Of a stretch of 38,329 bases of DNA, positions 1 to 38,329 are shown piece after piece. Both the position numbers and the translations under genes were made by a program. Each line of letters begins with the position of its first letter. Positions within the stretch are counted from its first letter, which is position 1. Source of the DNA: a virus; the UHGV virus genome UHGV-1488451; one strand, given 5' to 3'. The notes beneath the pieces were generated by a model. The model did not search any database and was not told the DNA's origin. It saw only the letters and a program-made list of their open reading frames with translations.

Positions 1-75
1 GGACACCCACGCGTCGCCGGACACCCACGCGTCGCCGAACACCCACGCGTCGCCGGACACCCACGCGTCGCCGGA
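1..75. repeat. 18-bp tandem repeat array (4 units plus partial), unit ggacacccacgcgtcgcc with A/G variants; encodes hexapeptide repeats on minus strand
   Basis: Direct reading: units at 1-18, 19-36, 37-54, 55-72; same array family as 38008-38277. Confidence 0.9.
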
Positions 76-645
76 CAAGTTCGATTCCTTTTCAATGAAA
101 CCGCCGAGTTCGCCTTTATCCACATATCGGCTTGGGATGTTCTCGGTGGCTTGAATACGGTACAGCGTGCGGCCAAAGACCGTGATTGTTTCGTCAGTGA
201 GGCGGTACTTTCTTTCGCTCATTATTCTTTCCTTTTTGGTGAATCTTTCGATGCATCGGTTGATGTCGTCGATGGTGATGTTTCCCCAGGGTTCGTTGAT
301 GTCCCTGTCAAGTTGCGGGGTTCGTGCGGGGAGTGTTCCTCCTAATGCGTATGGACGTTGGTTGTTTTTTGGGGTGAATTTCATCGGGTGCGGCATGTTG
401 GATGCGCTGGCATGGTTGCTGAAAGTTCCTGGGATGATTTGCAGCAGCCCGACCCCGTGTTCTACTGGGGCGTTTTGGTCTCGAATAGGCGCTATTGCGG
501 GGCCTGATTCGGCTTGGATTTCCTCGAGCACCCGTTTTATGTGGATTGCGTTTAGGATTCTTTGGCAAATGAGAGCTGTTGCTTTGATTTTGAGAAGTTG
601 TTGCATTGCTGTTAGCGGCTCAAAACTGCGGATGGTGTTAGGCAT
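1..645 (-). CDS. N-terminal portion of SLT-like (lytic transglycosylase) domain protein fused to hexapeptide repeats; 3' end runs off window start
   Basis: Manual minus-strand translation is open from 819 down to position 1; in-frame ATG at 645 (also 765, 606, 222). Contains IQAESG...EHGVGLLQIIPGTF, closely matching the SLT motif inside the tape measure protein. Not in ORF track because no stop lies within the window. Confidence 0.5.
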   Translation of the reverse strand, partial: MPNTIRSFEPLTAMQQLLKIKATALICQRILNAIHIKRVLEEIQAESGPAIAPIRDQNAPVEHGVGLLQIIPGTFSNHASASNMPHPMKFTPKNNQRPYALGGTLPARTPQLDRDINEPWGNITIDDINRCIERFTKKERIMSERKYRLTDETITVFGRTLYRIQATENIPSRYVDKGELGGFIEKESNLSGDAWVSGDAWVFGDAWVSGDAWVS

Positions 646-910
646 GCTCCGTGGATGGTGCCGATGTTGGGGTTGGGGGTGAGGGCGTTTCGAATGGGGC
701 GGGCATTTTCTTTGGTCTTTCTTTGGTAGTGGTTTTGATGGTTTGAGGCCCCCTGTGTTGTTCATCCACTGTGGGGGCTTTGTGGCGTGGCGCGGGGTTG
801 CACCGCGCTTTTGTGCTGCTCACGCCTTTGCTGTGTTCTTTCTCGTGTTCGTTCCCTCCGGTTTTTGTCCGGGTTCCTGGTGTCCTTGCCGATGCTTTGC
901 GAGAGCTTCG

Positions 911-1160: not shown

Positions 1161-1535
1161 ATGAGACACAAAGACTGGGTAGAAAACCTTATTGGCCCCG
1201 ACTCCATGCGCACAGCAGCAGCCAAACTTGGCCTATCCCCCGGCGCAGTGTCCCAGCAGATTAGCCGTGGAAGTTTGAAGCCAGACATGGTGATCGCGCT
1301 TTGCCGCGCTTATGGGCGGTCACCGATTGATGGGCTTGTAGAGACCGGGTTTCTTGAGCGGTTCGAGGCGGGCGCAGCTAGCCCTGCTTCGGCGCTTAGG
1401 GAGGCGACGAATCAGCAGATTCTTGGTGAGATTATGCGGCGTTCCGATGCTGATGCGGTGCGGCTATTTAGGGCTGAGGATGAGGATGTGGCGGTGTCGT
1501 CGCAGGTGAGGGCGGATGGTCCTTACAGTGATTGA
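1161..1535 (+). CDS. HTH DNA-binding protein, candidate immunity repressor/regulator
   Basis: 124 aa; HTH-like segment AAKLGLSPGAVSQQISRG; first gene of rightward arm next to palindromes. Confidence 0.5.
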   Translation: MRHKDWVENLIGPDSMRTAAAKLGLSPGAVSQQISRGSLKPDMVIALCRAYGRSPIDGLVETGFLERFEAGAASPASALREATNQQILGEIMRRSDADAVRLFRAEDEDVAVSSQVRADGPYSD

Positions 1536-3010: not shown

Positions 3011-4135
3011 ATGGCATCAATCAAACGATATGACACCGCCAAAGGAACAAAATGGCGCGTCCAATACCGCACCCCAGACGGCAAAAGCCGCACCAAAACC
3101 GGATTCCGCACCAAAAGCGAAGCCGAAAGATGGGTGGCCACACACACCACCTCCATCATCAATGGCACCTGGGTTGACCCCAACGCAGGCAACATAACCA
3201 TCCAGGCCCTCGGCACACGATGGATGGAAACCCGCACCCACCTGAAACCCTCAACAGCACGCGTCGAAGCCCTCGACTACAAAAACCACGTCCTCCCACA
3301 CTGGGGGCACCGGCGCATCAAAACTATCAAACCGTCGGAAGTGCAAGCCTGGGTGTCAGCCAGCGCCCAATCACCCTCAACCACCAGGCACCACCATGCG
3401 ATCTTGTCGAAGATTCTAGACATGGCCGTCCTCGACAACCTCATACCCGCGAACCCGGCTAAAAGCGTCACCCTGCCCCGCAAGAACAACCCAACAAAGG
3501 TGTACCTCACCATCAGCCAATTGAAGCGCCTAGCGGACGAGGCAACGGTTCGGGGTGAGCTGATCTGGCTGTTGGGAACCACTGGCCTTAGGTGGGGTGA
3601 GGCCGCTGGCTTGCAGGCGCAAGACTTGGACCCGCTGAACGGGCGCATCAGGGTGGCGAGGAACGCAGTAACGGTAGGGGGCGAGGTGGTTGTCGGAACC
3701 CCGAAAACTCATGAGCGGCGCACAGTGGCTTGCCCTGGGCATGTGATGGGGATGCTTGAAGATGCGGCACGTGGTAAGCCGCGCACCGGGTGGTTGTGGG
3801 AGTCGCCTGCGGGCGGGCCTATGCGGCTTCCGGGGAAGGGTTCTTTTTTTCATTCGGCGTTGGGGCGCGTGCGCGCCGAAGACCCGTCGTTTCCTTCGTT
3901 GACTATTCATGGTCTTAGGCATGTGGCAGCCGGACTTTTAGTTTCGGCGGGGGCGAATGTGAAGGTGGTGCAAAAGCAGCTTGGACACAAGTCTGCGGCT
4001 ATGACGTTGGATGTGTATGCGGAGTTGTTTGACGATGACTTGGATGCGGTGCGTGGGGCGTTGGATGCTTTGGTGGGTTCTTTGGGGAATGTCGTCAAAT
4101 TGTCGTCAAATCGGGGTTTTGGTGACGCGGTTTAG
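3011..4135 (+). CDS. int: Tyrosine integrase (phage integrase family)
   Basis: 374 aa; catalytic-domain motifs GLRWGEA, HGLRH, LGH...TLDVYAELF (R, H-x-x-R, H, Y); AAGGA before ATG. Confidence 0.9.
   Translation: MASIKRYDTAKGTKWRVQYRTPDGKSRTKTGFRTKSEAERWVATHTTSIINGTWVDPNAGNITIQALGTRWMETRTHLKPSTARVEALDYKNHVLPHWGHRRIKTIKPSEVQAWVSASAQSPSTTRHHHAILSKILDMAVLDNLIPANPAKSVTLPRKNNPTKVYLTISQLKRLADEATVRGELIWLLGTTGLRWGEAAGLQAQDLDPLNGRIRVARNAVTVGGEVVVGTPKTHERRTVACPGHVMGMLEDAARGKPRTGWLWESPAGGPMRLPGKGSFFHSALGRVRAEDPSFPSLTIHGLRHVAAGLLVSAGANVKVVQKQLGHKSAAMTLDVYAELFDDDLDAVRGALDALVGSLGNVVKLSSNRGFGDAV
4088..4110 (+). repeat. Direct repeat AATGTCGTCAAATTGTCGTCAAA (two TGTCGTCAAA half-units), copy 1; candidate integrase arm-type binding site
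   Basis: Exact 23-bp copy also at 4298-4320; the two copies flank the tRNA-like core. Confidence 0.45.
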
Positions 4136-13560: not shown

Positions 13561-16500
13561 CTATGTGAGAACAGTGGGCGCGCCACCAACATGACGCTCA
13601 CCCTTGATCTTTTTCAGGTCTTTGGTGTTCACCTCGACCTTGCCCTCCACAGCCTCCACACGCTGCCGCAGGACTTCCTCACCATCCACGTTCACCACCA
13701 GGGTTAGCTGACCACCATCGCCCTTATCGGCGATTTGTTTCAGCACACCCCACTGGTCGTTAGTGAGAATCGCTTCCGGCTTGCCGGACAGGTTCACCGC
13801 CGCACCCTCATGAGGCAGCACACCGCCCTGGTCATACAGGCGTGTACCACCACGGGCACGCTGACCAGCCCAACCAGCGAGGTTCACCAACCCGTGTGCC
13901 GCGTCGATGTCCTCCATCAGGCTAGCCAAACCACCAAACCCATCATCACCACCATTAAAAGCGGCACCGAGTTCACCCCACGCGGCACCAGCATCAGCGG
14001 CCTTGTTGACAAGGAACTTGGCGCGCTCCTCACCAACAACACCAGCTGTTGCGCCGTACCCGTAGTCGCCACCGTTGAAGGCGGTCGTGAACTCCTCGGC
14101 CACGTTCGCGGCCAGGCTGTTGCGCACCATGCGGCCGAAATTACCGGTGGCGTTCACCAGTGTTTTCGCGTGCGTGTCGCCGATCAGCTGGCCGAGCCCG
14201 CCGAAGCCGTCATCACCGCCGTGGAACGCTGTTGTGAGTTCTTCACGTGCAGCATCCACGGGGTTGATCTGCGGCCCTGTTGGGTTAATGTCCTGCGGGT
14301 TTTCCGGTTTTGCGTCGGCAACTGCGGCTGCGGCACCATCAACCCCGGAAGCAGCGGTGTTAGAATCGCCTGCCTGTTTGGCCTGCTCTTCTTCCTTCTT
14401 CTTCTGGTCGCGGGTGAACCAATCCGGTACAGGCGCAAGCTTGTCCGGTGGGGTTGTGGCCAGCTTCTTGATCAGGCCGTTTCCGCCGCCGATGAACTCG
14501 AAGAACGCGTCTTGTGCAAGTGCGTCCGGGGACTTGTTGCCAAGGGTTTTCCAGAACACTTCGTTGGCGATGCCAGCGCCGTAGGCCCCGGCGTCTTGCC
14601 AGCGTTTTACTTCGTTCTGGGCGTTGACGATTCCTTGGTGTGCGGCTAGTGCCGCGACTACTGCGGGGTGGTCTTCTTCGAGGTGGGTTGCGTCTGCGCC
14701 GAGGTATTCGCCGGTGTTGATGACGTGCATGAGTGCGTCTGCGGCTTGTTTCCAGGCTGCGGGGCCTTTGTTGCCGAGTTCGACGAGGGCTGGGATTGCG
14801 TTTCGGAGGTCTCCGAAGTTGCGTTCCAGCATGTCCCACTGTTCAGCGGTTAGGACAGCCTCTGGCTTTCCTGTGTGGTTCCAGTAGGTGCCGAACCCTC
14901 CTGGGGTGGGTTTGAGCCAGCCGCCGGAATCGTAGCCATGTCCATGACCCCACATTGTGGTCAAATCAGTGCCGTACCTGCTCTTGTAGTAGCGGAGCGC
15001 GGCGTTCATATTGGCCCACGGGTCACGCCTATCGTTCGGCAATTCGGGGTCACGGTTGGCTGCGAATGTGCCGGGGATGATCTGCAGCAAGCCAACGCCC
15101 GCACTGTCGCCAGTTCCGTTGACGTCGACAATCTGCTGTGCAATACCCGGGTTGCCACCAGACTCAGACTGAATCTGGGCCAGCATGGCGTTGACCTGCG
15201 CCGGGTCATCAGCATTAAAGCCTTGACGACGCATCGCGGCCATTGCCATTTCGCGCCACGACTCGGCATTACCAGCCACACCAGCGGCACCGGAGAAGGT
15301 GCCCACCTTCGACTTGATAAAGTCCCAAGCCTTGTCAGCGAGGGTTTTAGCGATAGCTCCGGGGAGCTTGCCGAAGTCGCCGTGCTGCTCCTTGCCTGGG
15401 AAGTCGCCGATCTTATTGATCGCCGCGTCCCACAGGCCCTTGACCATTGCTCCGAGGTTGAAGCCGCCACCGCCACCAGCGCCACCTGAAATGAACTCCC
15501 CAAGGAACTCCTTCAAAGTGTAGGTGTGGTTGAACAGGCTGTTATCGGAGCCACGTGCCGCACCGCCGATCTGCACGCCGTGATCGCCCGCCGATTCCAA
15601 GTTAACCCCGTCGATAGTGCCCGCCATGTGGCCGTTCTCGCCGCCGCCTTTGCCGGACAGCACGCCAATGGTCACGCGGCCAGACAAGCCGGGGACGAAC
15701 CCGAAGTTACCAAAGTTACTTTCGGTGTTGAAGATACGTCCTGCGCGCAGCGAACCGCCGTTCAGGAACTGCGTAATGCCTGACCACAGGCCCGAGCAAT
15801 CCCAGCTGGGGTTGCCGGTGCCCCCATACTGATAGGGCTTGCCGTGCTCAGATTTGAGTTCATTGAACAAGGCCGCAATGCGCTCAGTCAGGTGATCGCG
15901 CTGATCAGTGCCGCCATTAGGGAACACGCCGCCCTTAGCGAACGCAAGGGCACGGTACACGCCGCCGCGCGCGAACGCGGCACCCTCACCCAGCATCTTC
16001 TTGACGCGGCTCACGCCACCACCAATGGCGGCTTTGTTCAGCGCATCAACAGCAGGCTTACCGCCCATAGCCTTAGTGACCTCTGGGCGCATGATCGCCT
16101 CACCGCCGGACAAGCCAAGCAGCCCGCCAGTGGGGCTGTAGAAATGGTGAATATCCTTACCAGGACTGTAACCAGGCAGGACACCACCGGTTGCGAAATG
16201 ATGCTCTGGGAGTTCACCAAGGCCAACCAGCTTGGCCACCGTGTTCCAGGCTTTCCTGATGCCACCGTTGTAGACCGTGTTGACCACGAACTCAACAGGT
16301 TTTTTCGTCTTGTCCTTGATGCCGTCCCAGATGCGGCCGATATTATCGACGGTCTGACTGAACCAGTCTTTGACTTTCGTCAACCCGTCTTTCAGCCCGT
16401 TGAACACCGGGTGCACCACATTATCAGCAACCCAGCGTATGCCGTTGCCGAGGGCTTCCCACGTTGGTTTGATGTAGCCGTTCCAGATGCTGGAGAAGAA

Positions 16501-19500
16501 GTCCCCCAACGCCTGCAAACCGGCCTGCATCAGGTTCCACGTTGGTGTAACAACCGTGTCGAACACCCACTTGATGCCAGCGCCAAGACCGTTCCACACA
16601 GCCTTGATGAACTCGACCATCGGGTTAAACACATTGTTGGCCAGCCATGTGATTCCCGCGATCATTAAATCCCAGGTGGGTTTGATGATCGTGTCCCACG
16701 CGAATCGAATGGCAAGGCTCAGGCCGTCCCACTCGAATTTGATGAAACCGAAAATCGGCATGAGGACGTTGTTCCACATGAAGTTTGCCGCGCCTTGCAG
16801 CAAATCCCACGCGGGTTTAATCACGTTGTCCCAACCAGCTTTGATGCCCCATGACAGGGCTTCCCAGGCCAGCAGCAGCGGTGTCAGCACGATCGTTCCG
16901 ATCAGCGCCAGGCCAAACTTCGCCGCGTACTCCAACGCGTCCCACGCCGGTTTGATCAGCGTGTTCCACGCCCAGGCGATGCCAGCGGAAATAGCATTCC
17001 ACGTGTCACCCAGGAACTGGATACCAACACGCACAGCATCAGCCAAGTAGTTGCCCACCCATTGGATGACCACACCAACCACACTGATTAGCGGGTTGAA
17101 ACCATTGGTGATAATCCACGACAAAATGTTCGTGGCCTGCGACAAAATCCACGCTAATCCCTCAACGGCTTTCACCGCCCCAAGGATTGCGCCCACCACC
17201 ACGCCACCAACAATGATACCGATGGTTTGCAGCACCGGCATCAGCACCGGTTCAAGCAGGTTCCACAGCTGCACAAGCAGATTCCACAAGCCTTGCAGCG
17301 CACCCCACACAGCACCCGTGATCGTCTGGCCAAGACTATTCAAAGTCGTGGCCAAGGTCGTGACAGTGTTCCACAGGCTCGTGAAAGTGCCACTCAGCGA
17401 ATCCACAATTATGCCGCGAATCCACTCCATTGCATTACCGACGGTGGTGAAAGCATCAGCAATCATCTGCGCTTTGTCCGCGCCGAAAAGGGCGGTCAGC
17501 CCGCCGATGCCAGCATCATCGCCCTGGAACGCGGCGAACAGCTCACCAATGGATGCCTTCACATTCTGGAACGCAACGCCCATGCGCTCAGCAAAATCAA
17601 CAATCGCCTGGGCTTTATCAGCCCCGAAGATCGCCATGAGGCCACCAAACCCGGCGTCGCCGCCGTTGAAAGCCTCAGTGATTTCACCCCACGCGGCTTT
17701 CAGGTTGCTGAACAGAGTGAACACCGGCTGTAGGGCTTGCCCCATGAAGCTGGTGAACTCGCCCCAAATCCGCTTGCCCGTCTCGGTCTTCGTGAAGAAC
17801 AAGACCAGGGCACCAACAACGGCGGCTATGCCAGCGACAATCAAGCCTATGGGGTTGATCAGCATGGCTGTGTTCAAGCCCATTTGTGCGGCCGTGGCCT
17901 GCAAAGTGCCCGCGCGCTGCGCCGCAAGCAGGGCAGGCAAAACTTTCATCTGCGCTGCAAACGAACTAATCGCAGACACCGCAAACAAACCAGCCTGCGC
18001 CGCCCGCAAAGCAGCCATGCCAGCAACAACACCACCAACAGCGCCGCCAATAACAACCAGCAAATCCTTATTGCGGCCCAGCCACTCAGCCACAGCAGGA
18101 AGCTGATTAGTCAACGCGCCAATGGAGTTCCCCAGACGATCACCCCACGCCGAAAGCGTAGGCTCAGCCAAGGCGTACAGCTGCAGCTGCAAATCATCAA
18201 TCGCGTTTCCGATACGGTCCATCACACCATTCAGGCCAGCGAGCTTAGCCCCCGCAGTTTCACCAGCGGAGCCTTGCCGGTCGAGAGAAGCACGCAGCTT
18301 ATCAAACCCCTCGACACCACTGTTCGCCGCAGTAGTCGCAAACGATACAGCCTCACGCCCAAACGCGGTTGCAGCAGCGGCGGTAAACGCACTCTCACCC
18401 ATGCGGTCCTGCGCGGCCGCCAGCTGCGCGGTGATTTCCCGCATACCCACGAACTTGCCTTGCGCATCGAACGCATTGACACCCATCTCAGCAAGCGCCT
18501 TAGCGCCTTCTTTTGACGGGTTAGTAAGCGACAGCAACGCCGAACGCATCGCCGTACCAGCCTCGGAACCCTTGATGCCAAGGTTGGCGAACAAGCCAAG
18601 ATACGTACTCGCATCCTGCAAAGACACACCCAGAGTGGAGGCAATAGGTGCCGTGTACTTGATGGAGTCGCCTAGCTCAGTCAAGCCTGTAGCACTGTTA
18701 TTAGCGGTGTTAGTCAACACGTCAGCAACAAGTGACGCATCCTTAGCCGCCAGGTGGAAACCATTCAACGCCGCGATCTGAATATCAGCAGCAGTGCCAG
18801 CATCAACCTGAGCAGCACCCGCAAGCTGAATGGAACCCTTTGCCGCGTCCATAGCATCAGACACCGACAAACCACCCTTAGCCAACGCCAGCATCGCATC
18901 AGTAGCAGATGCGGCACTAGTGCCAGCCAGGGTTTCATCGTTGCCAAGGTCGCGGGCACGCTGCGACACCATCTTCATAGTGTCCCCAGTCGAACCCGTC
19001 ACAGCCTGCAACGACCCCATCACCTGCGACAGCTCACGGCCTTTACCAATGGCATCACCAAAAAACGCGGCACCACCAGCAACACCAAGACCACCAGCAA
19101 TAACCCCACCAAGACGACCAACCGTCCCCACAAGGGAACTAATCTTCCCGCCCACACTATCCACATCACCAGAAAGGCTCAGCGCCCAAGCCTTCGACTT
19201 CTCAGCCGCGCCAGTGAACGTGAAACCAGTCTTCTTAACCTGGTCCCCAACATGCCCAGCAGCCTCAGCAGCCTTACGCTGCGACGCTGCGGCGTCCTCC
19301 ATTGTGGCCTTGTACAGTTTCTCCTTGGCGCTCACCTGGTCGTTGGCGTTCGCTAAATCAACCTTAGCTTTCTTAAGCTCCCCCTCCGACTTCACCAAAG
19401 CAAGTGACGCACGGTCAGACTGGCGTTTAGCAGTCTCTAGCTCACGCTCCGCGCGCTGAACCTCCTTCGAGTCAGCGTCATTAGCGTTACGCGCGTCCTG

Positions 19501-31238: not shown

Positions 31239-32426
31239 TCAAAACGGGGGTTTTGCGGCGTTGGAATTGCCGAACCATACACGACTACCCGCCGAGGGGT
31301 TTTCGGGCGTGTGAGGCGGCAATGAGGGCGGATTTGGGGCATTCTCGTTTCGTCTGGCCGCCCGGAGTTGAGCGTATTCCGGTGGGAGGTCCACCGGCTC
31401 GGGGGGTGTCCGATGGTCGCATTTGCGGGCTACGCTGCGGTTTTCCGGCGAATCCGGGTCGATTCCTCGGGTCGGGACCAGGACAAAACCCCGCTCGTCG
31501 CACCACGGGCAAGCGTCGATTTCGGCGCGTCGTGCCTGCTTGGCTTGGGTTTTCTGGTCCTGGAACCAGCGTCTGGCGGCTGCGCAGGCCCCGCAGGGTG
31601 GCACCTGGTCGCGTGGCAGCCCGGCGTGTTCGCGGCATCGGGGGTCATCCGGCGTGGACCAATCGGCGGGTGTGTCGCCGGTCACGGTTGGGGTGTTGGG
31701 GGGCGGCGCGTCAGCGGCCGCCGAACCCTGGTCGAAACTCGGGGCGGGGGCGTGTGCGCTTGCGCTCTCGCTCGGAAGATTTTCTCTCTTAAGCTCCCCT
31801 TTATTGGTATTGGTCGGGCGCAGGTCCGGGCGCGCGCGTCGCGCGCGAGGAGTGGACATGCGGGTGGCGTCCGGGGTGGACATTTCGGCGTTTTCGCTGG
31901 TAGAGGAAAAATCGCTCGACCTATTCGGATTCATTTCGTTTTCATTTCGATTTCGATTCGCGTTCGATTCGGATTCATTTCGATTTCGATTCGGATTCAT
32001 TTCGCGTTCGGATAGGTCGAGCCTCCCTGTTTCAGTATCGGCGTTGCAGCCCCTCCTGCGGGCCTTTGACTCGCGTTCAATACGGCGTCGATTCGAGCGT
32101 TGTTCGCGGGTCTGCTGATAGTCCCCCCAGTCCCTAAAAGTGAACACGATCACACCATTTTCATTGACTGATTGCGTCCACAACCCCGCATCAACAAGCG
32201 CCTGAATCTGAACCGCGCTCCCCCGCAAAGCCCGCACCTGCTGACGAGGAATCACCCCATCAGTCTCAAATTCAGCGCACCAACTCCCAGCCTTCGCCCA
32301 TAAACCCACCGCAGCATTAGGAAGGGAGGAAATCTTAGGATGCGCATGAAAACGGTCGTCAATCATGAACCAGCTCATTACGCACCGAGTCCAACATTCA
32401 AGCAGACAACACTGATTGACCTGCAC
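31239..32426 (-). CDS. Replication initiation (O-like) protein candidate with internal iteron-encoded low-complexity linker and C-terminal Cys cluster
   Basis: N-terminal folded-looking domain, central NPNRNRNESESNANRNRNENEMNPNR linker encoded by the tandem repeats, C-terminal CGAC...CPWC; start uncertain (32426 GTG, 32378 or 32366 ATG). Confidence 0.5.
   Translation of the reverse strand: MQVNQCCLLECWTRCVMSWFMIDDRFHAHPKISSLPNAAVGLWAKAGSWCAEFETDGVIPRQQVRALRGSAVQIQALVDAGLWTQSVNENGVIVFTFRDWGDYQQTREQRSNRRRIERESKARRRGCNADTETGRLDLSEREMNPNRNRNESESNANRNRNENEMNPNRSSDFSSTSENAEMSTPDATRMSTPRARRARPDLRPTNTNKGELKRENLPSESASAHAPAPSFDQGSAAADAPPPNTPTVTGDTPADWSTPDDPRCREHAGLPRDQVPPCGACAAARRWFQDQKTQAKQARRAEIDACPWCDERGFVLVPTRGIDPDSPENRSVARKCDHRTPPEPVDLPPEYAQLRAARRNENAPNPPSLPPHTPENPSAGSRVWFGNSNAAKPPF
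31914..32020. repeat. Iteron-like array: about 8 tandem copies of an 11-bp unit (nnTTCnnTTCG family) flanked by imperfect inverted repeats; candidate origin of replication
   Basis: Seen directly: GATTCATTTCG / TTTTCATTTCG / ATTTCGATTCG / CGTTCGATTCG ...; 11-bp period; flanks CTCGACCTATTCGGA and TTCGGATAGGTCGAG. Confidence 0.5.
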
Positions 32427-32590: not shown

Positions 32591-33028
32591 TTAGAACGGA
32601 GGTTCGCCCGTATCCTGCGGGGTGGCCGGGGGTGAAGAACCCCACGCGCCCCCCTGCTGAGAAGGCGCATACCCAGGGCGCGCCTGCGAACCAGCAACCT
32701 CAACATCAGCCACAGACTGCAACGCATCAACCGCCATGACCTTAATCATCGACCGTTGACTACCGTCCTTGGCTTCCCACTCCTCAGTGACCAGCTTTCC
32801 AACCACCGTGACCTTAGAACCCTTCCTCAGGTAGGACATTGGTTCAGCAGCCTCACCCCACAAGGTGACTTGGATGAACAACTGGTTTGTGGTCTCCCAC
32901 TCACCAGTCGGGGTTTTCCTGCTGTCGGAGCACGCGAGGCGGAAGGTGCTGCATGGTTTGCCGTTGGAGGTGAACCGGAGTTCAGGGTCGCTGACCAGTC
33001 TTCCGGGGAAATGCTGGTACGGAATCAT
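32591..33028 (-). CDS. ssb: Single-stranded DNA-binding protein
   Basis: N-terminal GRLVSDPELRFTSNGKPCSTFRLA (OB-fold SSB signature), Gly/Gln-rich tail ending in acidic-aromatic tip EPPF. Confidence 0.85.
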   Translation of the reverse strand: MIPYQHFPGRLVSDPELRFTSNGKPCSTFRLACSDSRKTPTGEWETTNQLFIQVTLWGEAAEPMSYLRKGSKVTVVGKLVTEEWEAKDGSQRSMIKVMAVDALQSVADVEVAGSQARPGYAPSQQGGAWGSSPPATPQDTGEPPF

Positions 33029-33894
33029 GGCATGCCTCCCTCGGCTTCGGCCGCGAGGGCTTCCATCTCAGCAAGGGTGTTGTAGCGCTCACTGTAGGCG
33101 TGCTCTGCGGCTTCGCGCTGCGGGTGATCGGCGGGGATTCCCCTGGCTTGCTCGGCCACCGTGTTCAGGTCGTCGATGCTGGCTGCGGTGTTGAATGCCG
33201 CGATGATGCTGTCAACGTCGATCTGTGGTGCCTGCTTGGATTCGAGGGCGGCTTTCACGCCTGAGGCGCCGCGCTGCTGGCGGGGCTTGTCGAGGCGTGT
33301 GGCCTTGGCCTGCACGCGGCTTTCCTCGAGCTGCAAATCCTCAGCCGTGTAGGTGATTCCCAACAACACGTCGGGGGCCAGTTTGCGGCACACCTCGGAT
33401 AGTGCCTTGGCGTAAAGCATGGCTTGCGGGTCGCTTTGGTACTTCTTGTTTGAGGTGTAGCCTGCACGCTTTGCCCGGTCGATGGTCCATGTACTGGTTT
33501 CCTGCTCACCCTTCGGCGAGGTTCCAGTCACCGTGACGCTTTCATCTGTGGACTCAATGGTGTCAAACCTGTAGCCGCGCGCCTTCAAAAGCCCAGACAT
33601 AGTGCGCGCGTAGATCGCGGGTGTGCCGTGCACAACGAAAATCTGCTGCAGGGACTGCAGGGGCTTCAACCCCAATTCAGCACCGTAGAGTATTGCCGCT
33701 GCTCCGTTTTCCGGCTTGCCCTTGTAGGTCTGTGGCACCATGTCGGTGCTGCACAATGCCACCGCTAGTTTGTGGGCGGTTTCCATTGCCTGTGCTTGCC
33801 GCATTAGCAGGTCTATGGCGTCGTCACTGACGTCGCCGGTGGGCATTACCTCAGCCTCGGCGGGTGGGGTGATGCGGTCGATTTCCTGGCTCAC
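33025..33894 (-). CDS. recT: RecT-like single-strand annealing protein
   Basis: NGAAAILYGAELGLKPLQSLQQIFVVHGTPAIYA resembles the RecT family core; paired with YqaJ-like exonuclease. Confidence 0.7.
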   Translation of the reverse strand: MSQEIDRITPPAEAEVMPTGDVSDDAIDLLMRQAQAMETAHKLAVALCSTDMVPQTYKGKPENGAAAILYGAELGLKPLQSLQQIFVVHGTPAIYARTMSGLLKARGYRFDTIESTDESVTVTGTSPKGEQETSTWTIDRAKRAGYTSNKKYQSDPQAMLYAKALSEVCRKLAPDVLLGITYTAEDLQLEESRVQAKATRLDKPRQQRGASGVKAALESKQAPQIDVDSIIAAFNTAASIDDLNTVAEQARGIPADHPQREAAEHAYSERYNTLAEMEALAAEAEGGMP

Positions 33895-34322
33895 TGGTTG
33901 CCCTCCTTATTGGGGTTTACGACGTAGATTTCGTAGCCTCGGCCGTAGAACCCGTTGTCTTCGTAGCCTTTGGCGGTGATGATTTCGGTGGCCTTGACTT
34001 CAGACTCTGCCCACACGAACACTCGAACGATGTGGTCGCCGATTGCGTTGTAATCCTGGGTGAGGTCTTCTTCGGCGATCTTCACGCCGGTGATTGCATG
34101 GTCGTAGGGCGCAAGGCGGCTTATCCACCAGTTCCCCGCGCTGCAGCCTCCGCAGCCCTCGTTGCCTACGGTGTAAAGTCGGACACCGTTGTCGAGGATG
34201 AGGGCTTCATCGTCGTCATCGACTTCAACGATTTTACGGCCGATGAGAAGTTCTTTGAGGTCTTCGAGGCTTTCACCATCGATTTTCTTATCCCAGTCGC
34301 CTTCGTAGTGGTTGAAGGTCAT
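33891..34322 (-). CDS. Hypothetical protein
   Basis: 143-aa ORF; contains GCGGCSAGNWW; no recognised family. Confidence 0.45.
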   Translation of the reverse strand: MTFNHYEGDWDKKIDGESLEDLKELLIGRKIVEVDDDDEALILDNGVRLYTVGNEGCGGCSAGNWWISRLAPYDHAITGVKIAEEDLTQDYNAIGDHIVRVFVWAESEVKATEIITAKGYEDNGFYGRGYEIYVVNPNKEGNQ

Positions 34323-34579
34323 TGTTCAAGCTCCTTTGCTTCCGTAATGCCGTCTTTGGTGAGCAGGTGGGTTACACCACGGGGGTGGTTGTCCATGTTG
34401 ATTGCGGCGGGCTGGAAAATCCCCACCCATTCGCCGCTTATGTGCTTTTTCACCAGGTCTTGGCACTGCATGTACGTTTCGGCCTGCACCGCCAAGATCA
34501 TGTCAGGGTGGGCGGGCGCCCACTCAGGGTGCGTGTTTTTACGGTACTTCTCGTGAAATATCACGTAAAGGGTTTTCAT
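34319..34579 (-). CDS. Hypothetical protein
   Basis: 86-aa ORF, translationally coupled to neighbours. Confidence 0.4.
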   Translation of the reverse strand: MKTLYVIFHEKYRKNTHPEWAPAHPDMILAVQAETYMQCQDLVKKHISGEWVGIFQPAAINMDNHPRGVTHLLTKDGITEAKELEQ

Positions 34580-35586
34580 AGCTTTGCTTTCAGGTTCGGG
34601 CGCAGCATGACCCCACCGCGTGAGGTTGCTGCGCGGGTAGCGATGGTGGTTTCACCCATGAGGGCTTTTTTGGCGTTGCCCATGCGGTCAAGCAGCCTGG
34701 TTTTCGCCGCTGTCGCTGCCTGCGCGGCGGCTTTCTCCATGCGCAGGGCGGTGAGGATTTCTTCGGCCTCGGCAGGGGTGAGCTGCACTTCCTCATCCGG
34801 GTTGATGTCCGTATGCAGGCCCCGCACTGTTTGGTAGGTGCTGGTCGTGTCATCAAGCGGCGGCGGAGTGTCTTCCTGCAGGGATGCCCACCAGCCTTTG
34901 GCCACGTCCACCAGCCCGTCGAACAGGTCAGCGTCCCAGGGGATTTCATGTTCCTCGGCTTGGTGGAACGGCCCCAGCACAAGAACACTTGCCTGGTGAA
35001 TGCCGCTGACTCCCATTTGCCACACCACTTGCGTGTGGTAATCCGCTGGCACACTGTCTGGTTCGCCGGGTTTCCCCCAGTCGTCGAGGCTTCTAGCGGT
35101 TTTGCATTCCAGGATTCGGAATGCCCTGCCCCTGCGTGCCCTGCGGTCGAGTGTGGCCAGGTTGGGGAATGGCAGGTCATCACGGGTGTAGGCGACTTCC
35201 CCGGCGTTTAGTTGCCATGTTTTGGGTTGGCGGCGTGCCCACCAGTCAGCTAGCGCCAACTCGGCGGCGTGCCCCCAGTCCGCAATGTCTTGTTTCATCG
35301 GGGTTGGCGGGATTCGGCCGGCCATTTCGTGCCACAGGGTGTATTGGCTGGTGAATCTGCTGACTCCGAGGATTGCTGGGATTTTCGACGCGGTGATCAT
35401 TCCCCGCCATTCGTCGGAGCCTGGCGGCGGGGGATTCTTGACGGTTCGGCTTGTCATCGTCACAGCACCAGGATTAGCGACAGTGTGAAGATCAGGGTGC
35501 ATAGCGCACCGAGGATTGCGATGCTGATGACTGGTGGTGGTTCTTGGAATCGTTGTGGGGGTTTGCGGTGGGTCATAGTAGTTCAC
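34576..35586 (-). CDS. YqaJ-like (lambda-exonuclease-type) recombination exonuclease
   Basis: ITASKIPAILGVSRFTSQYTLWHEM and ILECKTARSLDDWG...QVVWQMGVSG match the YqaJ PD-(D/E)XK pattern; true start probably an internal Met. Confidence 0.7.
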   Translation of the reverse strand: MNYYDPPQTPTTIPRTTTSHQHRNPRCAMHPDLHTVANPGAVTMTSRTVKNPPPPGSDEWRGMITASKIPAILGVSRFTSQYTLWHEMAGRIPPTPMKQDIADWGHAAELALADWWARRQPKTWQLNAGEVAYTRDDLPFPNLATLDRRARRGRAFRILECKTARSLDDWGKPGEPDSVPADYHTQVVWQMGVSGIHQASVLVLGPFHQAEEHEIPWDADLFDGLVDVAKGWWASLQEDTPPPLDDTTSTYQTVRGLHTDINPDEEVQLTPAEAEEILTALRMEKAAAQAATAAKTRLLDRMGNAKKALMGETTIATRAATSRGGVMLRPNLKAKL

Positions 35587-37481: not shown

Positions 37482-37727
37482 TTAGATGTTGACAAGATCG
37501 AACCACCCGACCAGGTAGTCTGAGTCGCCCATCATGGTTGCAATGCGGAGGGCGTCGGCGGCGGTGACGTATTTCCGGCCATGCCTAAAAAGCTCCAAAT
37601 CCGATACCTGGTATCCGAGTGTGGCCGCCAACCGTTCATCGGTGTTCAGGTTCAGCATGTGCGCAATGTTTTCTAGCGCGCCGCGCCGGAATCGGTATTT
37701 AGGCGCGGTCATTGTCATCACTGTCAT
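37482..37727 (-). CDS. Small HTH DNA-binding protein (Cro/XRE-like candidate)
   Basis: 81 aa; HTH-like segment RLAATLGYQVSDLELFRHGRKYVTAADALRIA. Confidence 0.5.
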   Translation of the reverse strand: MTVMTMTAPKYRFRRGALENIAHMLNLNTDERLAATLGYQVSDLELFRHGRKYVTAADALRIATMMGDSDYLVGWFDLVNI

Positions 37728-38329
37728 TGGCTTCTCCTTTGTCTTCCTTCTCTGGTTTCCATGATTCGGCGCGAATGGCGATCATGTCGTGGATTGCTTG
37801 GTATTCGGCTTGCCAGCGTTCTTGTGTGGCTTCGTCGTGGCGCTTCCAGTAGTTGGCGCGGCGTTCGGCGACGGCTTGCATCATTGTGGTTAGGGTGCCT
37901 TCCCAGCATCCGATGCAGACGAATATTTCATCGGTTCCGGTGTGCGCCGCAGTTACCCAGCGGCTTTCTACTCCTGCAGGGCCAGCAACGAAGATGTGTT
38001 GTTTTTGGAACACCTCCGCGTTGCCGGACACCCGCGCGTTGCCGGACACCCACGCGTTGCCGGACACCCGCGCGTTGCCGGACACCCACGCGTTGCCGGA
38101 CACCCGCGCGTCGCCGGACACCCACGCGTTGCCGGACACCCACGCGTCGCCGGACACCCACGCGTCGCCGAACACCCACGCGTCGCCGAACACCCGCGCG
38201 TCGCCGGACACCCACGCGTTGCCGGACACCCACGCGTCGCCGAACACCCGCGCGTCGCCGGACACCCACGCGTTGCCGGACAAGTTCGATTCCTTTTCAA
38301 TGAAACCGCCGAGTTCGCCTTTATCCACA
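37699..38329 (-). CDS. C-terminal portion of hexapeptide-repeat protein (about 15 repeats plus about 95-aa C-terminal domain); 5' end continues beyond window end
   Basis: ORF-track GTG at 38328 is an edge artefact; the frame remains open to the window edge and matches the N-terminal part at window start. Confidence 0.6.
   Translation of the reverse strand, partial: VDKGELGGFIEKESNLSGNAWVSGDARVFGDAWVSGNAWVSGDARVFGDAWVFGDAWVSGDAWVSGNAWVSGDARVSGNAWVSGNARVSGNAWVSGNARVSGNAEVFQKQHIFVAGPAGVESRWVTAAHTGTDEIFVCIGCWEGTLTTMMQAVAERRANYWKRHDEATQERWQAEYQAIHDMIAIRAESWKPEKEDKGEANDSDDNDRA
38008..38277. repeat. 18-bp tandem repeat array, about 15 units with A/G and C/T variants, encoding [W/R]V[S/F]G[D/N]A hexapeptides
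   Basis: Direct reading; protein NAWVSG DARVFG DAWVSG ... NARVSG. Confidence 0.9.

Follow-up and report, generated by a model that had tools for sequence, protein, structure and literature searches.

Transcription activator-like (TAL) effectors are composed of helical repeats of 33–35 amino acids (aa) with a demonstrated one-repeat-to-one-base DNA code, and in pentapeptide-repeat proteins such as Qnr and MfpA, a right-handed helix with four sides mimics DNA. The Liberibacter prophage genes hyvI and hyvII and the BACON-domain repeats of crAssphage reportedly contain internal tandem repeats that differ between strains and are used as diversity markers; the hyv repeat unit is 132 bp. The closest documented analogue of the locus described here, as a prophage gene of a left-handed-helix family with a tandem repeat of variable number (VNTR), is NeuO, the O-acetyltransferase of Escherichia coli K1 prophage CUS-3, in which a 5′ VNTR (the poly-psi motif) varies in copy number among isolates and alters the protein (PMC3046976). 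Here, we analyzed the virus genome UHGV-1488451, a stretch of 38,329 nucleotides (nt) referred to as the window, and an array of near-identical 18-nt units within a solenoid gene that spans its two ends. With good but not complete confidence, we regard this array as a coding minisatellite, read in frame as the solenoid core of an early protein resembling YdcK, in which slippage or recombination would give rise to alleles differing in length and surface. The array is of a known kind, a coding minisatellite in a YdcK-like solenoid; what is of interest is the TAL-effector-like restriction of its variability to three predicted surface positions and the recurrence of this pattern across many phage lineages.

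Layout of the array and its gene

The array, the domains on either side of it, and the overlapping contig ends are located in the window as follows.

38011 to 38280, minus strand: array of 15 in-frame 18-nt units, each encoding one hexapeptide V[S/F]G[D/N]A[W/R/E]; predicted beta-solenoid core
37699 to 38010, minus strand: C-terminal domain, 103 aa plus stop; four strands and two helices; conserved IGCW-x-GTL motif
76 to 222, minus strand: N-terminal cap, 49 codons, MSERKYRL...GGFIEKESNL; ATG at 222–220
1 to 75, minus strand: variant array start, four units SGDAWV SGDAWV FGDAWV SGDAWV (4–75) plus 3 nt; graph branch or second allele
38206 to 38329, equal to 1–124, no strand: overlap of the contig ends with 3 mismatches; circular or permuted assembly

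Tandem Repeats Finder reported a repeat of period 18 at 38017–38282 (14.8 copies, 92% matches, score 427) and a second array of 4.3 copies at 1–77. The degenerate unit TYCGGCRACGCGNRGGTG gave 19 exact matches, all on the minus strand, of which 15 are contiguous (38011–38280) and 4 lie at 4–75, whereas 0.01 matches are expected by chance (100 dinucleotide-preserving shuffles). The contiguous units encode SGNAWV SGDARV FGDAWV SGNAWV SGDARV (units 1–5), FGDAWV FGDAWV SGDAWV SGNAWV SGDARV (units 6–10), and SGNAWV SGNARV SGNAWV SGNARV SGNAEV (units 11–15). Within the window, S/F is toggled at nt 2 of the unit (C/T), D/N at nt 7 (G/A), and W/R at nt 13 (T/C). The units are arranged head to tail, are near-identical, and are in frame with a minus-strand open reading frame (ORF), which is the layout of a coding VNTR.

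An earlier note on this DNA, made from the sequence alone, had described about 15 in-frame 18-bp hexapeptide units, and the 15 contiguous, in-frame exact matches bear this out. Its statement that D/N, W/R, and S/F are toggled by transitions only holds for units 1–14; the last unit carries GAG (Glu), a transversion. The span that it had proposed as hypervariable, 37968–38329, contains the array but also reaches 14 codons into the start of the C-terminal domain and covers 16 N-terminal-domain codons, and its account of the gene is corrected here in that the hexapeptides are encoded on the minus strand.

When the contig ends are joined, the gene, which crosses the contig junction, encodes a protein of 242 aa consisting of a 49-aa N-terminal domain, the 90-aa array, and a 103-aa C-terminal domain. 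A Shine-Dalgarno-like motif (AAGGAAAG) lies directly upstream of the ATG, and the N-terminal cap is partially duplicated at 38281–38329. The K-Y-x-L-T...GG-x-IE N-terminus is conserved throughout the family and in YdcK. No exact match for the sequence of the window's truncated product was on record. Pfam PF18836 (YdcK beta solenoid repeat) was matched with 65.3 bits against a cut-off of 30, in 6 stretches. The NCBIfam equivalog model of YdcK, NF040481, gave 42.8 bits against a cut-off of 350 and was aligned over model positions 25–141 of 326. As judged from its sequence, the 242-aa protein is related to YdcK and is not its equivalent.

An AlphaFold2 model was obtained for a 10-unit allele (P0001), not for the 242-aa window protein. 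It had a predicted local distance difference test (pLDDT) value of 83 and short strands with a 6-residue period. In a Foldseek search against the PDB, the top four matches were the YdcK structures 2PIG/2F9C (probability 1.0, best E 4e-4), with low template modeling (TM) scores (0.23–0.43) because only part of each protein aligns. These were followed by hexapeptide-repeat acyltransferases, which matched weakly (E ~1 or higher). Matches in BFVD were confined to uncharacterized proteins or proteins with generic automatic names. Val occupies position i and Ala position i+4 in all units, which is a signature of the hexapeptide fold and not evidence of enzyme activity. An assignment as a transferase was unsupported: PF00132 (Hexapep) was absent from the Pfam matches of the solenoid protein at E up to 1, and NCBIfam acetyltransferase models reached 16–18 bits, far below their cut-offs of 160–440. 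A bactofilin was likewise unsupported (Pfam PF04519, 19.7 bits against a gathering threshold of 27.9), as was DNA mimicry of the kind known from Ocr and pentapeptide proteins, since the array is near-neutral in charge according to the unit list.

Unit number differs among near-identical genomes

The array was compared among genomes of the same lineage. Three of the genomes closest to the window carry the following alleles.

L001 (MEGAHIT k119): 99.94% and 99.89% identity to the window over 10.5 and 10.2 kb; 10 units, equal to window units 1–5 plus 11–15
L178 (k127): 99.8–99.9% identity to the window flanks; 11 units, of which units 3–11 equal window units 7–15
P0245: flanking protein identical to that of the window; 9 units

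Near-identical genomes thus carry 9, 10, 11, or 15 units, and their alleles differ by clean block insertions or deletions at identical units. In relatives at 89–95% identity, the array has 2, 3, 4, 5, 6, 8, 9, 12, 15, or 16 units. The arrays contain internal segments of 36 and 54 nt that are exactly duplicated. The longest internal exact repeat in L001 and L178 is 59 nt, shorter than the k-mer lengths of 119 and 127 used for their assembly, so these two arrays are not artefacts of collapse. Two samples (L187 and L189) yielded an identical sequence for the first 12 units of one allele. All complete alleles of the lineage that were examined stay in frame with the 18-nt unit, unlike a phase-variable on/off locus, in which copy number shifts the reading frame. 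A search of IMG/VR and JGI metagenomes with an exact 27-nt flank pattern gave no match, whereas a degenerate pattern matched.

The variation in repeat number predicted by the earlier note was thus found among near-identical genomes, and the uniformity across independent isolates that it had named as contrary evidence was not, as the array differs between independent genomes and ranges over 2–16 units in the lineage. The comparison of sequences supports the hypervariability of the array in the sense of standing variation among genomes, not of a rate. The array could be used as a VNTR-type marker that separates phage strains otherwise 99.9% identical.

The contig ends and the unit count of the window

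The window is a SPAdes contig (ena:ERZ772978, NODE_83_length_38329_cov_8.3186) assembled at k = 55 with ~8× coverage. Its end overlap contains mismatches at 15/38220, 45/38250, and 69/38274, and is exact over 55 nt only (70–124 = 38275–38329). In addition, bases 1–55 of the window are identical to 38134–38188, inside the array. Because the exact overlap equals 55 nt and the first 55 nt recur inside the array, the two end copies are branches of a k = 55 graph and not two loci. The earlier note had pointed to two window-end copies differing at 3 positions; the 3 mismatches are there, and the copies are assembly-graph branches matching two different alleles. The branch at the start of the window differs by a single base from the L178 allele of 11 units. 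Its sequence is that of a second allele or a graph branch and not noise, and the two branches together are a hint that the sample contained two alleles. A terminal repeat of the phage was ruled out by the exact overlap of 55 nt, equal to k, and by relatives in which the gene is intact in mid-contig.

The window array contains exact repeats of 57 nt (units 1–3 = units 4–6) and 59 nt (units 11–12 = units 13–14). Since both exceed k = 55, the count of 15 units in the window is insecure. At least 10 related contigs break off inside the array (L084, L085, L093, L180, L181, L183, L184, L187, P0241, and P0242), as both the repeat and a mixture of alleles within a sample would lead one to expect. The array thus breaks or scrambles short-read assemblies, and both ends of the window lie in or beside it. 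Separately, one contig (L167; ERZ21615918 NODE_52_length_75825) spans ~2× the phage genome, with tail genes directly upstream of the integrase, and resembles either a concatemer of two copies or a pair of variants that were assembled one after the other.

Variation within units is confined to three codons

We next surveyed 146 units from 16 contigs of the lineage. The commonly varying nucleotides were nt 2 (S/F/Y), nt 7 (D/N), and nt 13–14 (W/R/E/K) only. In the hexapeptide, Val 1, Gly 3, and Ala 5 were invariant, and all of the common variation fell at positions 2, 4, and 6. All 12 combinations of S/F, D/N, and W/R/E were present. Only 3 synonymous changes were found among 730 third-codon positions that can change silently. 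In nine of the same genomes, synonymous-only polymorphism was observed in 22 of 49 codons of the N-terminal flank and 28 of 97 codons of the C-terminal flank. A rough count of mutational types gave a non-synonymous-to-synonymous ratio of 8:1 in the array and 36:50 in the flanks (Fisher p = 0.011). The substitutions were C/T, G/A, and T/C/G, with two to four states per site, and were not specific to adenine. Hot spots of CpG/methyl-cytosine deamination were rejected as their source, since synonymous CpG transitions are possible at nt 3, 9, and 12 and were essentially never seen.

According to the rule for left-handed beta-helices, residues i and i+4 face the core (Val and Ala here), and a hexapeptide forms one side of a triangular coil, with three hexapeptides per turn. 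From this rule and the strand periodicity of the model, the variable positions 2, 4, and 6 are predicted to face outward.

Related genes in other phages and bacteria

Arrays of 4–43 units were found at 156 other loci, where the upper quartile of third-position identity between units was 0.98–1.00. At the loci that were studied more closely, many lineages have a synonymous codon set of their own and vary at the same nucleotides. Degenerate arrays with synonymous differences occur in gp64 of Mycobacterium phage Boilgate and in chromosomal copies of Bartonella; by their sequences these appear to be older arrays, and the degeneracy of the Bartonella copies suggests that they are older, domesticated, or decaying. 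Bartonella genomes (L012–L081) hold many copies of the homologue, with at least 8 loci in Bartonella sp. B1099 and one homologue on the plasmid-assigned contig pVbh_WD121 in Bartonella sp. WD12.1.

Length variation was also observed in cultured phages. Five Vibrio breoganii phages (L162–L166; GenBank MG592579, MG592510, MG592418, MG592419, and MG592511) have flanks that are 97–100% identical and products of 200, 255, and 260 aa; two of the five homologues have a frameshift or stop inside the array, which is either real or a sequencing error. In four isolates of Edwardsiella Kafunavirus KF1, the array has 8–10 units in differing orders. The Edwardsiella phages vB_EpP_ZHX and IW-1 (L173 and L175) carry tandem YdcK-like genes, of which the first is short, with one or two rungs before its end, and the second is a full copy; KF-1 and ETP-1 have one annotated YdcK-like copy at the place of these two.

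YdcK-like solenoid genes are very widespread among phages and prophages; more than 7,900 proteins had E ≤ 0.001 among the matches listed. Wherever the context was viewed in temperate phages and prophages, the solenoid gene lies close to lysogeny or repressor genes; in a Liberibacter phage, the homologue is downstream of the C2 repressor gene and divergent from it. The homologues bear public names that include transferase, glycerol kinase, cytoskeletal protein, and clustered regularly interspaced short palindromic repeat (CRISPR) spacers, and the NCBI annotation pipeline often labels them "polymer-forming cytoskeletal protein". The Vibrio phage arrays are annotated in GenBank as "CRISPR spacer" noncoding RNA features, labels that we regard as misannotations given the sequence of these arrays. 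The array thus misleads the annotation of homologues in public records.

Genomic context and host

The modules around the solenoid gene were annotated from precomputed Pfam matches on L001 (99.9% identical), which were mapped to the window by alignment together with the ORF list. The neighboring features are as follows.

223 to 765, minus strand: upstream ORF in the frame of the solenoid gene with no stop between; 181 codons from MNNTG or 128 codons from MQQLL at 606
1161 to 1535, plus strand: helix-turn-helix (HTH) repressor-like gene (PHROG 16278, 3949, and 19579), divergent from the solenoid gene
3011 to 4135: integrase, from L001 Pfam matches and integrase homologues; divergent from the solenoid gene
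37482 to 37727, minus strand: regulator-like gene of 81 aa (PHROG 638), overlapping the 3′ end of the solenoid gene
33025 to 35586, minus strand: recombination module with a YqaJ-like exonuclease (34576–35586), two small genes, and a RecT-like annealase (33025–33894)
32591 to 33028: single-stranded DNA-binding protein (SSB), after the RecT-like annealase

The divergently transcribed repressor-like gene at 1161–1535 places the solenoid gene at the head of an early operon. A promoter scan of positions 1–1300 gave no informative result. Downstream, the order is solenoid gene, HTH and excisionase-like genes, YqaJ, RecT, SSB, RusA, and terminase.

The upstream ORF is in frame with the solenoid gene in seven of the eight genomes compared and out of frame in L169. 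Its variable sites are enriched at codon position 3 (46 of 128, compared with 26 of 128 at position 1 and 21 of 127 at position 2). Gene callers either fused it to the solenoid gene, as in P0243 (393 aa) and P0250 (318 aa), or omitted it, and from its sequence it may be part of a long isoform or a separate cistron. A stretch of this ORF, AES...GVGLLQIIPGTF, is similar to a lytic-transglycosylase motif; its matches were only weak ones to tape-measure PHROGs (E 0.013).

All of the named integrase homologues (50–60% identity) are from Corynebacterium, and one near-identical genome came from a human oral metagenome. From these two observations, the host is probably an oral Corynebacterium. The window comes from a temperate siphovirus of the human mouth. 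No close prophage was found among species-representative genomes, in which the best match was 49–63% identical. The only matches of the window to the DNA of cultured phages were short stretches of tape-measure sequence from Gordonia and Rhodococcus phages. The GC content of the window is 54–61%. Across the whole window, a tRNA scan found no tRNA, and no Rfam family reached its gathering threshold.

Two other repeats were observed in the window. At 31912–32032, repeats with a period of 11 nt (and 22 nt), similar to ATTCGGATTCATTTCG, lie within a 395-aa minus-strand ORF (31239–32426) between SSB and RusA and look like replication-origin iterons embedded in a replication gene. At 13931–17697, a 56-nt segment occurs in four diverged copies within a 2171-aa tape-measure ORF, as ordinary internal repeats of such a gene.

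Discussion

In the mechanism that we propose, each 18-nt unit would add one hexapeptide, that is, one side of the triangular coil, with three units to a turn. The DNA of the units is nearly the same throughout, which would allow blocks of them to be added, deleted, or reshuffled by replication slippage or unequal homologous recombination. The block differences at identical units, the duplications of 36 and 54 nt, and the uniformity at the DNA level fit such slippage or unequal recombination accompanied by concerted evolution. The YqaJ/RecT module of the phage may help exchange between units, within one genome or between co-infecting genomes, and we infer that a role of this module in array turnover is plausible. 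The outcome would be an allelic series in helix length and surface pattern, with a constant N-terminal cap and C-terminal domain.

The surface of the solenoid would be under diversifying selection if this early protein had a variable binding partner from the host or a competitor. Early expression, the position at the lysogeny switch, and the combination of a conserved core with variable surface and length fit a binding protein of this kind, and it is reasonable to consider the family a candidate for roles in host takeover, anti-defence, or exclusion. The family also provides a natural experiment in the number of rungs (2 to >40) that a left-handed beta-helix can gain or lose while staying in use. 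A more specific proposal is that the solenoid acts as a reading head comparable to that of TAL effectors, in which each rung would show one of about a dozen combinations of three outward residues (S/F/Y, D/N, and W/R/E/K/Q) to successive elements of a periodic ligand. Examples of such a ligand would be a glycan, a repetitive protein of the host, or a strand of nucleic acid, and recombination of cassettes would retarget the protein. We consider this proposal quite unlikely. If true, it would explain why DNA-identical, recombinogenic units with the same three polymorphic positions occur in dozens of unrelated lineages, and this widespread early-gene family would act as a binder that can be reprogrammed in arms races of phages with their hosts or with one another.

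The variation itself might be ascribed to assembly, with one true array whose units were collapsed, expanded, or mis-threaded in short-read data so that number and order appear to differ. The window gives some ground for this, being an 8× SPAdes contig with k = 55 junctions at its ends and exact repeats of 57 and 59 nt, and many related contigs stop inside the array. Nevertheless, the L001 (k119) and L178 (k127) arrays are set uniquely by k-mers, having no repeat longer than 59 nt; arrays of 2–6 units (36–108 nt) fit within single reads; and the same first 12 units were obtained from two samples. Cultured phages that were sequenced independently vary likewise, and the alleles differ in unit sequence as well as in number. 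An artefact is therefore unlikely. If the variation is real, it could still be that the array is an ordinary, stable structural repeat kept by purifying selection on the fold, with copy number as a slow trait of lineages. YdcK itself has a fixed length, and the diverged units with synonymous differences in Boilgate gp64 and the Bartonella copies are what such stability would give. In this lineage, however, four length alleles occur among genomes that differ by ~0.1% elsewhere, and the near-identity of the units at synonymous sites implies recent or ongoing amplification; stability is very unlikely as an explanation of this array.

A diversity-generating retroelement (DGR), or another form of templated diversification, would account for variation limited to a few nucleotides of an otherwise invariant repeat and for the near absence of synonymous change. 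The window has no template-like second copy besides the two end copies, and no reverse transcriptase was found among the Pfam matches for the 20.6 kb of L001 that surround the gene, a scan that leaves the structural module outside. The substitutions lack the adenine specificity expected of such an element, and the same positions vary in unrelated phages with no sign of a shared retroelement, although those genomes were unscanned for one. We therefore rejected the array as a DGR target and regard templated diversification as extremely unlikely. We give virtually no chance to the view that the array is a non-coding or differently read element, namely a CRISPR-like array or a sequence read in another frame or on the other strand. 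It has in its favor the "CRISPR spacers" annotation of MG592579, MG592510, and related arrays, as well as the facts that the unit is open in several frames and that nt 7 and 13 are third codon positions in the +1 frame. A CRISPR array was ruled out, as the units follow one another directly, without spacers, inside a conserved ORF, and no Rfam match was found. Coding in another frame or strand was ruled out by the frame, which runs on into conserved N- and C-terminal domains in every homologue, and by the xGxAxV pattern, which is kept across the family and across phyla.

Several points weigh against our reading of the array as a coding minisatellite that yields length and surface alleles of an early protein. 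All alleles come from short-read assemblies, so that the variation is one between assemblies and not a rate within a population, and the unit count of the window itself is ambiguous with its repeats longer than k and its low coverage. The outward orientation of the variable positions is a prediction from the helix rule and strand periodicity. As for function, the matches of the protein to PHROG 7964, 5070, and 20532 include none with a known function, PADLOC gave no match for the solenoid protein, no relative of solved structure was found for the C-terminal domain, and nothing was found in the literature on a YdcK-like solenoid family in phages. Finally, synonymous sites of the array are undiverged between genomes whose flanks differ by 5–11%, and nowhere else do diverged genomes share a long stretch of perfect identity. 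Since slippage with concerted evolution explains uniformity within an array only, it must be supplemented by nucleotide-level selection or by gene flow that passes through the array. Exchange of arrays between genomes could account for the undiverged sites, as could selection on the DNA sequence.

Compared with known systems, the phage protein shares with YdcK of Salmonella and E. coli (2F9C and 2PIG) a K-Y-R-L...GG-x-(I/V)-(E/D) cap followed by a hexapeptide beta-solenoid. YdcK, however, is chromosomal, has a fixed length of ~326 aa, and is built of diverged rungs, whereas the phage protein has another C-terminal domain and DNA-identical cassettes that vary in number. Pentapeptide-repeat proteins and bactofilins are likewise beta-solenoids formed from very short sequence repeats; unlike the former, the phage array is close to neutral in charge, and the phage protein falls short of the Pfam model of the latter. 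The variable repeats of hyvI/hyvII and of crAssphage BACON domains differ in being whole-domain or long repeats in other proteins, and the Liberibacter homologue found here is a different gene. TAL effector arrays resemble the phage array in their near-identical DNA units, including synonymous sites, in variation at a few fixed codons, in variable number, and in recombination between units. The phage units differ in being 6-aa beta rungs, and the likeness is one of DNA pattern. NeuO is also a prophage protein of a left-handed beta-helix family with a slippage-prone coding tandem repeat, although its 7-nt unit switches the frame on and off and encodes an N-terminal heptad extension outside the helix (PMC3046976). 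In the phage gene, by contrast, the 18-nt unit always stays in frame, no acetyltransferase features were found, and the repeats are the helix itself.

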